Of a stretch of DNA of 20,000 bases, positions 10,059-12,728 are shown in pieces (the stretch's first letter is position 1; each line of letters begins with the position of its first letter). A model generated the notes under the pieces. That model did no database searches. It saw nothing but the letters and a program-made list of their open reading frames with translations, and had not been told where the DNA came from. Source of the DNA: an uncultured virus (IMG/VR IMGVR_UViG_3300027541_000721) (lineage: Duplodnaviria > Heunggongvirae > Uroviricota > Caudoviricetes); the IMG/VR virus record IMGVR_UViG_3300027541_000721, positions 53,706 to 73,705 of that record; one strand, written 5' to 3'. A program made the translations under genes and the position numbers.

Positions 10059-10811
10059 TTATGGAGAAAGTCTTGCTTTATGAAGTCTCTTTTCTTCATA
10101 ATAATCCCATACATTAGGTGCCCATCTTTTAAGAATAGGTGCAATTTGTTCAGTAAGTGCTTGAATCTCAAGTTGAGCATCTAGTTTTGCTCTAAGATCC
10201 ATTAGGTGAAGAGCAGATCTGAGATTAAATGATACTACAAAATTTTGTCGGATTGCTTGTGCAAGATAATCACGAATGTGCTCTTCGCACATACCCTTTT
10301 CATACTTTACAGCATACCTTTTACAACCCTCTAAAATCCAATTAAGTTCATCATGATAATCTTCTTCTGTCCAATCATATTTTTTACCATAACGATTTAC
10401 ATAAAACCCAGGAGGACGAACGTAAAAAACATCTTCAGTATTAAGTTCCCCACTTGCAACTTTTACAACTCTTTTTCCAGTATAACGTTGTGATTGAACA
10501 TCAAAACTTACTCCCACTCTGTGAGTCCTTGCTTGCATCGCAACGTTATGGACATACCCAGAGACCGAAACGGTAATGCCAGGGTGCTCCAGAGGTCCCC
10601 AGTGACCCTTATCATTCGATAGGAGACGTTCTACAATCCATTTGCCACACCCAGATGAATTTGGAATGTCTTGAGTATGAATAGGTGTCTCAGAGTAATC
10701 ACACTTTGCTGCCTGATAAATGACTTGTTCTGGAATTGGATAGCATTGTAGCATTACTACTTCCAAATTTTTATCAAGTTCAAGAAGATCTTTTGCTTTA
10801 ATTGGTTTCAT
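10059..10811 (-). CDS. thyX: Flavin-dependent thymidylate synthase ThyX (cyanobacterial type)
   Basis: GHWGPLEH, RTHRVGVSFDVQSQRY (ThyX motif), NLRSALHLMDLR...AQLEI. Confidence 0.93.
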   Translation of the reverse strand: MKPIKAKDLLELDKNLEVVMLQCYPIPEQVIYQAAKCDYSETPIHTQDIPNSSGCGKWIVERLLSNDKGHWGPLEHPGITVSVSGYVHNVAMQARTHRVGVSFDVQSQRYTGKRVVKVASGELNTEDVFYVRPPGFYVNRYGKKYDWTEEDYHDELNWILEGCKRYAVKYEKGMCEEHIRDYLAQAIRQNFVVSFNLRSALHLMDLRAKLDAQLEIQALTEQIAPILKRWAPNVWDYYEEKRLHKARLSP

Positions 10812-11145: not shown

Positions 11146-11174
11146 ATTTTACATAAAAAAAGGGGGGAAGTCAA
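11146..11174 (-). promoter_or_regulatory. Sigma70-type promoter overlapping a terminator
   Basis: TTGACT (11174-11169)-17 nt-TAAAAT (11151-11146). Confidence 0.7.
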
Positions 11175-11183
11175 GTCCCCCTT
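11155..11183 (-). terminator. Rho-independent terminator ending the riboswitch/DUF4278 unit
   Basis: AAGGGGGA-CTTGACT-TCCCCCCT followed by a T tract. Confidence 0.85.
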
Positions 11184-11187
11184 CATA

Positions 11188-11289
11188 TTATTTTGCTGCT
11201 AACAAAGTAGCAAGAGATGCTTGATGACGACGTTCTTCTTTTTGTTTTTGTTCTTTAATCAATTGAAGTACATTAATAGTTTTAATCAT
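11188..11289 (-). CDS. 33-aa basic helical peptide, translationally coupled to the DUF4278-like ORF
   Basis: MIKTINVLQLIKEQKQKEERRHQASLATLLAAK; ATGA overlap and an upstream GGAGG SD. Confidence 0.7.
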   Translation of the reverse strand: MIKTINVLQLIKEQKQKEERRHQASLATLLAAK

Positions 11290-11423
11290 TTATGTCCCTC
11301 CTTTACAAACTTAACCCCACGATAGGTCTCGTTGTATTGTTGAGGTTGTTGCATCATTTGTTGTTGATACTCAAGACGTTTTTGGGTATCATACTCGACA
11401 CCACGATAAACTACTTTAGACAT
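11286..11423 (-). CDS. DUF4278-like YRG-motif peptide (45 aa)
   Basis: MSKVVYRGVEYD...QQQMMQQPQQYNETYRGVKFVK with two YRGV motifs; AAGGAG SD; downstream of a glnA-type RNA. Confidence 0.85.
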   Translation of the reverse strand: MSKVVYRGVEYDTQKRLEYQQQMMQQPQQYNETYRGVKFVKEGHK

Positions 11424-11456
11424 TAGGGTTGCTCCTTTACTTTTTAAGGTTAGGTG

Positions 11457-11797
11457 GCGTTCCTTCCGTCGGCTTTTGCGTCCCTTAGTAGGATGAACGA
11501 CCTACTCTTTTTCCACAATAGGTATAGAAAAACATAGGCATTCCGTTCCGAGTCGGCGTACTTCCGTCCTATTTAATTTTAGCACTTTTGAATAAAATCC
11601 TTTCGGAGTTCTAATAGCAATCGGTCTTCTGTTCTTTGATTAACTACATCGTCGTTTTTAACGATGTCCATTAGTTCCCACACAGTATCACAACTAAGTT
11701 TAACTGCATATTCAGTTGCAGTTAGTTGTGAAGTAGAAAAAGAAAGAAATGGAACCCATGCTAAAAGCAAAAGTGCTTTAGCCATAGGATGAACGAT
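11457..11797 (-). ncRNA. glnA-type glutamine riboswitch, tandem or interlocked, with an ORF inside the first P2 loop
   Basis: ATCGTTCA-TCCTAT...ATAGGA-CGGAAGTA-CG...GAACG, then TCGTTCA-TCC..GGA-CGCAAAAGCCGACG-GAAGGAACGC. Shows P1 CGTTC/GAACG, E-loop AGTA/GAA, and the location upstream of a DUF4278-like gene. Confidence 0.8.
11579..11785 (-). CDS. 68-aa putative secreted or membrane-anchored protein nested inside the riboswitch
   Basis: Hydrophobic N-terminus MAKALLLLAWVPFLSFS and two Cys; the ORF nearly fills the P2 loop. Confidence 0.65.
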   Translation of the reverse strand: MAKALLLLAWVPFLSFSTSQLTATEYAVKLSCDTVWELMDIVKNDDVVNQRTEDRLLLELRKDFIQKC

Positions 11798-11803
11798 AAT
11801 TGC

Positions 11804-11832
11804 AGTATACTACCTACAATATATCTAGTCAA
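11804..11832 (-). promoter_or_regulatory. Sigma70-type promoter of the riboswitch unit
   Basis: TTGACT-17 nt-TATACT; predicted +1 at about 11797, coinciding with the 5' end of the aptamer. Confidence 0.75.
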
Positions 11833-11848
11833 TTATTTTGTAACAAAT

Positions 11849-12103
11849 TTATTTTTTCTTTTTATTTTCTTTTACTTGATATCCGTATGTTTTAGGATTT
11901 ACCGTACCAGAAGTCCAATCAATGCTTTTTACATTTCTATAATTATCATAATAATAATCAAAAATTTCTACTCTAGATCCAGATTGCACAATATCATAAA
12001 CAGGATGTTGAGCATCATCTAGATATGAAACTAAGTATGAATTTCTAGGTAACTCTTTATTTTTTGCGTAGGTTGGATCGCAATCTCTGTGAATAATGTT
12101 CAT
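11849..12103 (-). CDS. Conserved cyanophage hypothetical protein
   Basis: IIH.DCDP...KELP.NSYLV.Y...YDIV....VEIFD.YYD...WT.G..NPK; in operon context. Confidence 0.75.
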   Translation of the reverse strand: MNIIHRDCDPTYAKNKELPRNSYLVSYLDDAQHPVYDIVQSGSRVEIFDYYYDNYRNVKSIDWTSGTVNPKTYGYQVKENKKKK

Positions 12104-12110
12104 TTAAATT

Positions 12111-12728
12111 TTATCTATTAACTTCCCATGTAATATCAGGATAGGCTTCAGATACAATTTCTTTTGTAATGTTATACTTAGATTGTAATTTTTTATCTTT
12201 AACTAGACACATGATCTCTGCATCCAATGGATGTAAACCTTCTAGCATTTGAATAAACATACTTTCACGACGAAGTTTAGGAACTCCTGCATTTCCAGGA
12301 ACACCATTCTTAGACATTACAAAATTAATTAGTTTTTCATATTCAGTTCTTAATGTTGTATGTCCTGTTCTAATTTTTTCAGTATAGCTTACAGAAGAAC
12401 TTTTTTCTACTTCCATTTTTTCAACTTCTTTTCCAATCCTTTCTGAAATTGATCCAGTTTTTACTAGATCATCAGAAACTGTTCCATATGGAACTTCACC
12501 TTCAGGTAACATGGAAATTACATTATCATCAAAATTCCAAATAAAAATAGCCTTCAATGAAGGATGTTCATGTTCTTTAAGAATTTGAACTTTTTTTGCA
12601 TTCGTTCTTTGCTTACTTACCAATTGAAAAACTTCAAAAACAAAAGGATTATTTGGAAGTTTTTCAATTTTATCTACTGTTGCTTTTGTAGTAGTACTAG
12701 TTTTTTTTCTAGTTGTTGTAGAAGTCAT
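12111..12728 (-). CDS. Conserved T4-like hypothetical protein (DUF6433-like)
   Basis: LPNNPF.FEV, LKAIFIWNFD...SMLPEGEVPY, RRESMFIQMLEGLHP.DAE. Confidence 0.8.
   Translation of the reverse strand: MTSTTTRKKTSTTTKATVDKIEKLPNNPFVFEVFQLVSKQRTNAKKVQILKEHEHPSLKAIFIWNFDDNVISMLPEGEVPYGTVSDDLVKTGSISERIGKEVEKMEVEKSSSVSYTEKIRTGHTTLRTEYEKLINFVMSKNGVPGNAGVPKLRRESMFIQMLEGLHPLDAEIMCLVKDKKLQSKYNITKEIVSEAYPDITWEVNR

Follow-up and report, generated by a model that had tools for sequence, protein, structure and literature searches.

Organization of the transcription unit

The window analyzed here is a 20,000-nucleotide stretch of the uncultured virus record IMGVR_UViG_3300027541_000721, derived from a freshwater cyanophage in which a hairpin of a predicted glutamine-sensing leader encloses a conserved 68-codon gene on the minus strand. 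Reading along that strand, the order is a promoter-like site, the 5' half (11797-11784) of a type-1 glutamine aptamer, the nested open reading frame (11785-11579; ORF68), and the 3' half of the aptamer, which begins at 11572. Re-reading of the letters bore out all sequence statements that an earlier note had made on this layout: ATCGTTCA occupies 11797-11790 and TCCTAT 11789-11784, and ATAGGA (11572-11567) is followed by CGGAAGTA (11566-11559). The promoter-like element (TTGACT-17-TATACT; 11804..11832, minus strand), with 10 of 12 matches in a consensus scan, predicts a transcript start near 11797-11799. This start lies about 12-14 nt upstream of the ORF68 ATG, in agreement with the leader of about 12 nt that had been proposed, and no purine-rich Shine-Dalgarno (SD) sequence precedes the ATG, as had also been claimed. 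In relatives, a -10-like box lies a few bases 5' of CGTTCA.

The presumed regulated gene (11286..11423, minus strand) encodes a 45-aa IF17-like protein and is preceded by the SD sequence AAGGAG (11432..11437, minus strand), read directly from the letters. Its earlier description as DUF4278-like is supported; the product matches phrog_5049 at 1e-10 and Pfam DUF4278 (PF14105) over residues 3-38 at 19.1 bits (E 0.0017), below the cut-off of 25.3. The leader thus has the location expected for RF01739, upstream of a DUF4278/IF17-like gene with an AAGGAG SD, an association of glutamine riboswitches that is described in PMC6212724. In most relatives, CUCUUUA beside P1 is complementary, as judged by eye, to UAAGGAG. 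A 33-aa open reading frame (11188..11289, minus strand) overlaps the stop of the DUF4278-like gene; no family was found for it in Pfam or PHROG, and it matches an annotated CDS in S-SRM01. The unit ends at a terminator-like hairpin with a T run (11163..11181, minus strand; 7 such sites found against 0.5 expected) and measures about 635 nt from promoter to terminator. The stretch is present in assemblies of six RNA-labelled runs; in the four runs compared with it, the contigs also span neighbouring genes, so that neither transcript ends nor strand are visible and an origin from DNA is possible.

A conserved gene lies inside the P2 helix

ORF68 (11579..11785, minus strand; 68 aa) is a real, conserved protein-coding gene. 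Its database relatives form at least 250 clusters of 66-69 aa, and the median dN/dS is 0.31 in a codon alignment, with 187 of 188 pairs below 1 (a value of 0.43, obtained with indels unaligned, was set aside). Gaps within the reading frame are multiples of three, and 27 residues are invariant across 18 homologues, in which the Cys pairs are conserved. The earlier observation of a complete gene within the P2 helix of a glutamine aptamer is confirmed. The hydrophobic N-terminus and the two cysteines (Cys32 and Cys68) agree with the signal-peptide-like, two-Cys product described earlier, and from this N-terminus the product is predicted to be a small secreted-type protein. Searches of Pfam and PHROG found no family for ORF68, and a search of the protein Atlas returned its own viral cluster only. 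The AlphaFold model is poor (pLDDT 60.9) and contains two helices, at residues 32-44 and 55-67.

The gene and the RNA helix overlap. The ATG (11785-11783) contributes its A and T as the final two bases of the P2 5' strand, and the coordinates uphold the claim that the start codon lies within that strand. The AUG is likewise part of a P2 strand in all 20 split units of hairpin 1 (P2 of the first core) and all 91 gene-bearing units of hairpin 2 (P2 of the second core).

The split aptamer core

The features of RF01739 are present on both sides of the gene. The P1 5' strand of the outer core (P1a), CGUUC (11791..11795, minus strand), matches the consensus and is unchanged in 20 of 20 split units; its possible partner GAACG occurs at 11548-11544 and 11462-11458, and P1 is 100% paired in the alignment A4. 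P2 starts directly after CGUUCA and closes before ACGGAAGUA. Its strands, UCCUAU (11784..11789) and AUAGGA (11567..11572, both minus strand), can be read from the sequence and are paired in the minimum free energy (MFE) structure, in the centroid, and in A4 (100% of cells). Conservation of this pairing in homologs, on which the earlier reading depended, was found in 20 of 20 split units, and P2 covaries freely, by eye, among compact relatives. The J2/3 junction CGGAAGUA (11559..11566, minus strand) agrees with the glnA consensus and is invariant in A4; with the preceding base it forms the conserved sequence ACGGAAGUA at 11567-11559. P2 in the window spans 211 nt, compared to the usual loop of 3-9 nt.

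The split core was compared with compact orthologues after in silico deletion of 11575-11781, using an nhmmer profile built from 59 unique natural compact orthologues. The loop-deleted core scored 46.2 bits (E 2.4e-14; profile positions 2-50), within the orthologues' own range of 44.3-61.8 bits, and the best of 200 shuffles reached 1.5 bits. Thus, the match is not due to chance. Folding of the loop-deleted core gives a P1 of 5 bp, a P2 of 6 bp, and a third, small hairpin. The split layout was found again in 20 unique sequences, with both aptamer halves invariant in all of them, whereas the linker from the stop codon to the P2 3' strand differs among them in both length and sequence. Standard scanning misses this arrangement: in the window, Rfam gave no match at the gathering level (35 bits), which neither core reaches, and no match at all to the split core. 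The compact orthologues themselves score 28.9-35.6 bits against RF01739. The same scan of the window returned no credible family other than Glutamine and no intron or ribozyme core.

Two cores joined by a shared helix

A second, compact core (11454..11501, minus strand) matches RF01739 at 27.8 bits (E 7.7e-4; gathering score 35). On the minus strand it consists of CGUUC (11499-11495), a P2 hairpin (11493-11481), ACGCAAA (11481-11475), the strand AGCCGACG (11474-11467), GAAG (11466-11463), and GAACG (11462-11458). The first core continues beyond J2/3 with CGCCGACU (11551..11558, minus strand), which pairs antiparallel with 11474-11467 of the second core, and with GAACG (P1b; 11544..11548, minus strand). 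The latter would be an inner P1 strand in a shared-helix model, or the partner of 11795-11791 in a side-by-side model. Between the cores lies a 44-nt, hairpin-forming spacer (11500..11543, minus strand), compared with 3-4 nt in relatives; it was seen in this phage lineage only, where five more contigs show no difference over the 345-561 nt that were compared.

Several lines of evidence indicate that the "tandem" cores are not independent and share one P3 helix. Two cross-core pairs covary: the one at an end of the helix is A-U, G-U, or C-G, the one inside is G-C, G-U, or A-U, and neither is mismatched in any of 108 unique loci. Riboswitch loci with C in the 11558-11551 strand have G opposite in 16 of 17 cases, and those with G at the 3' end of the shared P3 have C opposite in 6 of 6; the C-G change may be a single event. 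Additionally, the RF01739 alignment spans both cores at 44.9 and 51.3 bits in two of the five scanned loci in which both units are compact (L047 and L048). J3/1 GAAG is present only before the second GAACG, and the first core has CUCG at that position, so the junction pair ACGGAAGUA plus GAAG is present in the composite and in neither core alone. The earlier picture of the first core as a simple compact three-way junction therefore needs correction. With a shared P3, the P1 partner of 11795-11791 is most likely 11462-11458 rather than 11548-11544; P1 itself never varies, and its covariation is thus uninformative as to the choice of GAACG.

Nearest-neighbour energies do not separate the two models (shared-helix, -93.7 kcal/mol; side-by-side, -95.9 kcal/mol). 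The MFE of the window (-103.4 kcal/mol) uses neither full sensor fold, as the spacer hairpin captures the second CGUUC (11499-11495), and enforcing the folds costs about 10 kcal/mol for the shared-helix and about 8 kcal/mol for the side-by-side model.

Pairing between the gene ends

The P2 helix extends into the gene. Codons 3-6 contain AGCACUUUUG (11768..11777, minus strand), a 10-bp perfect complement of CAAAAGUGCU (11581..11590, minus strand) in the last codons and first stop base. This extension is present in both the MFE and the centroid, as is P2, and corresponds to helix 3 of A4, which is 97.9% paired; the RNA of the window folds with a z of -4.70. A further hairpin within ORF68, ACAUCGUU / AAAAAC / GACGAUGU (11646..11667, minus strand), is present in the MFE. 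In A4 it corresponds to helix 7, with 97.5% pairing and two pairs changed on both sides, and it is nearly invariant, third codon positions included.

Codon choice favours the pairing of the gene ends. The extension duplex of the window has an energy of -18.3 kcal/mol, compared to -9.1 kcal/mol in synonymous resamples (p 0.003). Among hairpin-1 genes, the end-to-end duplex is at -15.8 kcal/mol against -10.2 kcal/mol after codon resampling, all 20 genes lie below their resampled mean, and p is at most 0.05 in 17 of them. Likewise, 88 of 90 hairpin-2 genes lie below their resampled mean.

RNAalifold recovered P1, P2, and the rod of paired gene ends unprompted from the split units (59 pairs). The A4 consensus structure has 97.1% of cells paired, compared with 33-55% when partners are slid, a lead that is inflated because the structure was derived from the same sequences. 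Compensatory changes on both sides occur at seven pairs; shuffles gave 2.1 ± 1.0 such pairs, and none of 500 reached seven, although the sequences are related and these counts are not independent events. The paired segments of ORF68 are also its best-conserved protein segments, with reduced variability at codon positions 1 and 2 as well, which confounds the third-position signal. In 91 hairpin-2 units, RNAalifold found P1 and did not find P2, and a fixed-column count gave only 62.8% pairing of the P2 extension, since the pairing register differs among subfamilies; energy-based resampling was more informative for these units.

Distribution among relatives

The riboswitch element occurs widely in cyanophage contigs, with at least 120 loci in a first scan. 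Across 124 related records, all four combinations of gene and no gene occur at hairpins 1 and 2, with one gene family in hairpin 1 and a different single one in hairpin 2. The nested open reading frames have 50-73 codons. The hairpin-2 gene has a dN/dS of 0.15 (95.7% of 1228 pairs below 1); in relatives it runs through the 3' half of the aptamer to a UGA stop in GACUGAAGG that lies some 10 nt upstream of the anti-SD. Comparison of the two families revealed no convincing homology (hhalign probability 0.4%, E 0.16; marginal hmmsearch matches). A PF09075 match of one hairpin-2 protein (E 0.09) was below the cut-off and was disregarded. A pattern scan of genome contigs returned two records only, both from non-cyanobacterial MAG or single-cell contigs, which says little on hosts.

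When mapped on a tree built from the 420 nt downstream, the presence of a gene changed 16 times at hairpin 1 and 8 times at hairpin 2, compared to 20.8 ± 1.4 and 13.3 ± 0.8 changes in shuffles. Of the 101 loci in this tree, 78 have no gene in hairpin 1, so the riboswitch functions, or is at any rate maintained, in its absence. The earlier suggestion that P2 is a landing site for small gene cassettes is only partly borne out: presence is patchy, yet each hairpin holds a single family in the 124 records.

These patterns bear on whether ORF68 is simply a passenger, i.e., whether the P2 tip is a tolerated site, much like the peripheral loops in which group I introns accommodate homing-endonuclease genes, at which the gene rides on the riboswitch promoter, with its ends pairing only so that the sensor can fold and with no coupling to glutamine. 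The occurrence of all four combinations and the scattered presence on the tree would fit such a passenger, as would the identity of the cores in compact and split versions and the acceptance of a 44-nt insert at a third hairpin tip, the inner P1 cap, in the window. However, a neutral passenger need not have its AUG built into P2, as it is in every split hairpin-1 and hairpin-2 unit above, nor would it readily explain why each hairpin holds one family. Moreover, for whatever reason the layout was selected, a translating ribosome physically has to open up P2. We regard the passenger explanation as a serious but less likely one.

It is quite unlikely that the split core is a relic, destroyed by the insertion, with decaying half-sites flanking the gene and only the compact core (11501-11454) sensing glutamine. 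Rfam indeed detects only the second core in the window, and the first lacks GAAG before its own GAACG. Nonetheless, the halves are invariant in 20 unique split units despite diverged synonymous sites and linkers, and the rod pairing is kept by compensatory changes. Under the covariation-supported shared-helix model, GAAG would be supplied by the second core, which on its own departs from the consensus (ACGCAAA) and scores 27.8 bits only. Finally, a leader-peptide attenuator, in which the translation rate of the nested frame rather than its product sets the downstream structure, is highly improbable: the frame does lie within a regulatory leader and overlaps switching helices, and the hairpin-2 gene of relatives stops close to the anti-SD, but both proteins are under purifying selection, the frames are long for this role at 50-73 codons, ORF68 has a signal-peptide-like N-terminus, conserved Cys pairs, and 27 invariant residues where an attenuator would leave the sequence free except for sensing codons, and inspection by eye showed no run of glutamine codons or of other sensing codons.

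Proposed competition between translation and glutamine sensing

The best explanation, which we consider fairly probable, is a composite type-1 glutamine riboswitch whose P2 closes around ORF68, such that translation and sensing compete. In this composite, the outer three-way junction would carry the full glnA consensus (P1 CGUUC/GAACG, J2/3 ACGGAAGUA, and J3/1 GAAG), its P3 would be an 8-bp helix to which each "core" contributes one 8-mer, and a second, circularly permuted junction would form at the far end of this helix. The outer P2 would be the long-range helix around ORF68. As the first ~45 nt of the gene pair with its last ~50 nt, a ribosome-free gene would fold into a rod of about 40 bp that joins the two aptamer halves and buries the ORF68 AUG. 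Ribosomes on ORF68 must open P2, and the sensor would thus be unable to form during translation. Conversely, the folded RNA, more so when bound to glutamine, may block fresh initiation on ORF68, and the bound state may free the ribosome-binding site (RBS) of the IF17-like gene, by analogy with the ON-switch and anti-RBS logic of Synechocystis gifB described in PMC6212724.

The earlier proposal that translation of ORF68 and folding of the aptamer are mutually exclusive therefore stands as an expectation from the layout, in which a ribosome has to open P2 and the rod. Since one stretch of letters is both coding sequence and scaffold of the sensor, translation should compete with nitrogen sensing, and glutamine-dependent reciprocal control of the two genes is plausible. 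That the leader works as a two-way translational toggle, selecting ORF68 or the IF17-like gene by glutamine level, is a more speculative step that we think rather doubtful. At high glutamine, the outer junction would close, burying the ORF68 start in P2 and freeing the IF17-like RBS; at low glutamine, or on nascent RNA, ribosomes on ORF68 would keep P2 open and veto sensing. If so, the phage would make either a secreted small protein or an inhibitor of the host's glutamine synthetase, depending on host nitrogen status, the gene's own codons would be the switch helix, and hairpin 2 and the inner P1 cap would be further plug-in sites with the same logic.

Comparison with known systems

Group I introns of the phage T4 td/I-TevI type carry homing-endonuclease genes in peripheral loops. 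Here, too, a structured functional RNA of a phage harbours a protein gene in a helix's terminal loop, and folding and translation have to be reconciled. In contrast, the Rfam scan of the window found no ribozyme core, there is no endonuclease or sign of homing, and the gene's own codons form the helix. RNAIII/hld, SgrS/SgrT, and SR1/SR1P are dual-function regulatory RNAs that encode a small protein and act in trans by base pairing. They too combine structural regulation with a small open reading frame in one RNA, in which translation and RNA function can compete, whereas the RNA described here is a cis-acting, predicted ligand-sensing leader with its reading frame inside an aptamer helix. In trp-type attenuation, translation of a leader peptide remodels alternative RNA structures. 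A short leader frame whose translation remodels the RNA is common to both, but the nested genes are conserved as proteins, lack sensing codons, and lie inside the sensor rather than ahead of a terminator/antiterminator pair.

Close relatives are the known type-1 glutamine riboswitches (glnA RNA, RF01739), such as the Synechocystis gifB/IF17 leader (PMC6212724), and tandem copies of these riboswitches are already known (Weinberg 2010, PMC2864571). The core elements CGUUC/GAACG, ACGGAAGUA, and GAAG, the placement at the 5' end of a transcript encoding a small DUF4278/IF17-like protein, and a P1-adjacent sequence able to pair with the SD are alike. In the phage leader, however, the short P2 hairpin gives way to a long-range helix that encloses the 68-codon gene, the cores appear to share P3 with half of the consensus junctions each rather than standing side by side, and the split core is missed by standard Rfam scans. 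A literature search of openly available full texts returned no account of a glutamine aptamer with a gene inside it.

Riboswitch aptamers are usually treated, and scanned for, as compact non-coding domains. Here, a conserved protein gene forms one aptamer arm and two cores are apparently fused via a shared helix, which hides the element from Rfam-based annotation although the element is frequent in cyanophage contigs. The locus provides a natural example of a sequence selected as both protein and RNA helix, and it offers a directly testable model of how ribosomes compete with ligand-dependent folding. It also points to possible phage control of host nitrogen metabolism via an IF17-like factor. 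For engineering, the split units indicate that an aptamer helix can hold hundreds of nucleotides when the ends of the insert pair.

A gene nested in a glutamine aptamer

Re-reading of the minus strand, on which all features described here lie, found every coordinate of the earlier note correct. A promoter-like site (TTGACT-17-TATACT, 11832-11804, 10/12 consensus matches) is followed by ATCGTTCA (11797-11790), directly thereafter by TCCTAT (11789-11784), and by the 68-codon ORF68, with its ATG at 11785-11783 and its end at 11579. ATAGGA (11572-11567) begins seven bases 3' of the ORF68 stop and leads into CGGAAGTA (11566-11559), CGCCGACT and CGGAACGG, completing the split aptamer (core 1). A 44-nt spacer separates CGGAACGG from a compact aptamer (core 2, 11501-11454) recognized by RF01739 at a loose threshold. 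AAGGAG (11437-11432) then lies 5' of a 45-codon gene (11423-11286), the presumed riboswitch target, which matches phrog_5049 (1e-10) and, below threshold, DUF4278 (19.1 bits; cut-off 25.3), and a 33-codon ORF and a terminator-like hairpin (11181-11163) follow. The neighbourhood is of the T4-like cyanophage type (Kyanoviridae relatives), with a phrog_485 protein (11849-12103), a DUF6433 protein (12111-12728; 121 bits) and a 250-aa ORF (10059-10811) in the same position as the annotated thymidylate synthase of S-SRM01.

Rfam gave no match anywhere in the window at gathering level, and at a loose threshold only the compact core 2 was matched (RF01739, 27.8 bits with E 7.7e-4; gathering score 35). 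We therefore scored the window, after script removal of 11575-11781, with an nhmmer profile built from 59 unique natural compact orthologues. The loop-deleted core 1 reached 46.2 bits (E 2.4e-14, profile positions 2-50); the orthologues themselves score 44.3-61.8 bits, and the top of 200 shuffles was 1.5 bits. In the intact window the match falls into two parts, a 3' half of 34.5 bits and a 5' half of 2.8 bits. The predicted fold of the loop-deleted core has a 5-bp P1, a 6-bp P2 and a small third hairpin. Together with the conservation of ORF68 as a protein, this score upholds the earlier claim that a complete gene sits inside P2 of a glutamine aptamer. The feature is real: a known class of riboswitch in a structural form that is new. 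Glutamine riboswitches of cyanophages, tandem copies included, are described in PMC2864571 and PMC9964418; neither a gene within an aptamer nor cores sharing a helix was reported in the openly available full-text literature searched.

Distribution among cyanophages

The isolated freshwater Synechococcus myophages DSL-LC02, S-SRM01 and DSL-LC03 carry the same leader before the same small gene. Their core 1 is compact (35.6, 28.9 and 34.2 bits, respectively), and the P2 of their core 2 encloses an annotated hypothetical gene of ~50 codons. A pattern for the 3' half of core 2 matched at least 120 IMG/VR loci, and 124 records were classified (the 120 IMG/VR loci listed, the three isolates and the window). 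The P2 hairpin of core 1 (hairpin 1) is compact and that of core 2 (hairpin 2) holds a gene in 71 records; both hold genes in 19, both are compact in 10, and only hairpin 1 holds a gene in 4 (the window, L017, L086 and L112), with core 1 beyond the contig end in 18 and the layout unclassifiable in 2. The nested-gene riboswitch is widespread in cyanophage contigs and unseen by routine annotation. Five more contigs are identical to the window across the 345-561 nt compared and so add nothing independent. Contigs X1, X17 and X19 from RNA-labelled runs diverge into other sequence at the aptamer half-sites (window 11567 and 11795), one of them running on into a compact core 1, so the same samples contain relatives that have the nested gene and relatives that lack it. 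Among 185,579 reference prokaryote genomes the core-2 pattern was nearly missing, with two matches, both in non-cyanobacterial bin contigs (L125, an Acetobacteraceae MAG contig of 3.8 kb; L126, a Paracoccaceae single-cell contig of 79 kb), which are probably phage DNA in bins rather than host copies.

Nested ORFs as protein genes

Among the matches listed, the ORF68 family is the sole hairpin-1 gene (20 unique units, 66-73 aa; ATG 10 or 11 nt past the C of CGTTCA), and hairpin 2 holds one other family throughout (91 unique units; ATG 9 nt past that C). ORF68 shares 51-79% identity with 17 homologues, with 27 residues invariant, both Cys among them, and it is represented in the protein collection by 250 or more clusters (66-69 aa), none of which carries a function. 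The median dN/dS was 0.31 for ORF68 in a codon alignment (188 of 190 pairs usable, 187 of those below 1) and 0.15 for the hairpin-2 gene (1228 pairs, 95.7% below 1). Gaps inside ORF68 are multiples of three, unlike those in the linker between its stop and P2. Neither family matched Pfam or PHROGs, and a comparison between the two did not demonstrate homology. The N-terminal sequence suggests a putative signal peptide; the structure model of ORF68 has low confidence. An in-frame stop leaves 20, 25 and 41 codons in 3 of the 91 hairpin-2 units (L044, L116 and L119) with the aptamer halves intact, and these may be decaying genes inside a preserved RNA.

ORF68 as an RNA helix

The two ends of ORF68 also pair with each other. 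In the window AGCACUUUUG (11777-11768) is perfectly complementary to CAAAAGUGCU (11590-11581), and the 263-nt RNA has a folding energy of −72.2 kcal/mol (z −4.70; equalled by 0/200 shuffles), its MFE and centroid both containing P2 and this extension. Across the 20 split units, RNAalifold predicted unprompted P1, the P2 pairing that the earlier note had read from the window, the extension, two internal hairpins and more long-range helices in which the first ~45 nt of ORF68 pair with its last ~50 nt; 7 of the 59 pairs in total show compensatory changes. In this structure 97.1% of cells were paired, compared to 33-55% with partners slid, and 7 pairs changed on both sides, compared to 2.1 ± 1.0 in shuffles (0/500 reaching 7); these counts are biased towards the structure, which was derived from the same sequences. 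When synonymous codons were redrawn in the first and last seven codons, with peptides and P2 held fixed, the natural duplex of hairpin-1 genes was stronger than the resampled mean (−15.8 vs −10.2 kcal/mol; 20/20 below the mean, 17/20 at p ≤ 0.05), as was that of the window (−18.3 vs −9.1 kcal/mol, p 0.003) and of hairpin-2 genes (−13.2 vs −9.6 kcal/mol; 88/90 below the mean, 28/90 at p ≤ 0.05). Third-codon-position entropy was lower in paired than in unpaired columns (0.33 vs 0.78; MWU p 0.0003), a test confounded by the same trend at positions 1 and 2.

An 8-bp hairpin with loop AAAAAC (11646-11667) lies within the most conserved stretch of ORF68, MDIVKNDDVV. It is near-invariant across the 20 units, synonymous sites included, with two compensatory changes, and may be an element of the RNA itself, located where the P2 rod has its tip. 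Some hairpin-2 genes (L067; L044/L099/L116) have extra 3' codons whose bases complement the invariant 5' strand UCUAUGGAA, e.g., ...UUUCCAUUAGA; by eye, hairpin-2 subfamilies with differing C-terminal peptides each pair with this strand in a different register.

Possible regulation by glutamine

The anatomy, coding status, pairing and conservation of both aptamer halves are observed; the regulatory reading is a proposal that lends itself to direct testing. Initiation at an AUG requires that it be single-stranded, and an elongating ribosome unwinds the RNA being read. The folded leader would conceal the ORF68 start codon, and ribosomes on ORF68 would keep the outer junction from forming. Transcription yields the 5' strand of P2 ~210 nt ahead of its 3' partner, so most ORF68 translation may take place while the RNA is being made or soon afterwards. 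Glutamine would tilt the leader towards its closed form, and hence expression towards the downstream IF17-like gene at the expense of ORF68. In Synechocystis, according to PMC6212724, a type-1 glutamine riboswitch switches on IF17 synthesis, the proposed mechanism being that glutamine melts a helix masking the ribosome-binding site adjoining P1. A passenger gene occupying a tolerated loop is the chief alternative, consistent with the lack of a gene in hairpin 1 at 78/101 loci and with patchy gene presence across a short FastTree built from the downstream 420 nt (16 changes in hairpin 1 vs 20.8 ± 1.4 in shuffles; 8 in hairpin 2 vs 13.3 ± 0.8). However, the AUG forms part of P2 in 111/111 unique units, which argues against a mere passenger.

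Two cores and a probable shared P3 helix

The consensus junctions are divided between the cores: ACGGAAGUA is present in core 1 only, core 2 having ACGCAAA there, and GAAG ahead of GAACG occurs in core 2 only. When the Rfam model was run on five loci with both hairpins compact, the best alignments of L048 (51.3 bits) and L047 (44.9 bits) started at the first CGUUC and ended at the last GAACG, placing 46-47 nt inside P3, and L038, L079 and L093 were matched in core 2 alone (37.2-40.1 bits). The core-1 8-mer 3' of ACGGAAGUA pairs antiparallel with the core-2 8-mer 5' of GAAG, and both covary. Over 108 unique loci, the terminal cross-core pair is A-U in 95, G-U in 4 and C-G in 9 with no mismatch, and an internal pair is G-C in 95, G-U in 5 and A-U in 8 with no A·C. 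In a targeted scan, G at the core-2 position met C in core 1 at 6/6 loci; conversely, C in core 1 gave 21 pattern matches, 4 in unrelated DNA and 17 in riboswitch loci, with G opposite in 16/17. The sole exception to the covariation, L141, has a different 3' strand, …GAGCCGAAGG, near the Rfam consensus gCcGAAGG. P1 never varies, and the covarying changes possibly represent few events.

Given the split consensus, the spanning alignments and the cross-core covariation, the simplest fold would make the two cores one composite nested sensor. Its outer P1 would pair 11795-11791 with 11462-11458, P2 would close around ORF68, and the shared P3 would pair 11558-11551 with 11474-11467; past P3, an inner junction would comprise GAACG (11548-11544) paired with CGUUC (11499-11495) and a small hairpin (11493-11481). 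Two separate cores side by side, each with its own small P3 hairpin, would leave the C/G lineage, window included, with a mismatch in both hairpins, and nearest-neighbour energies (nested −93.7, side by side −95.9, unconstrained −103.4 kcal/mol) do not choose between the folds.

Under the nested fold, the 44-nt spacer would be inserted where the inner P1 is capped, at a third hairpin tip tolerating extra RNA. In the unconstrained fold of the window leader, the spacer captures the second CGUUC. Among the matches listed the spacer is confined to this phage lineage, and it is identical in the 5 other contigs. In this region (window 11485-11543) it forms a strong hairpin; the outer arm of the hairpin, GAAUG, resembles GAACG and is paired in the MFE to the second CGUUC. 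A 16-codon ORF within it starts at 11535-11533, with CCU before the ATG as at the ORF68 start, and terminates at a TAA within the P2 loop of core 2.
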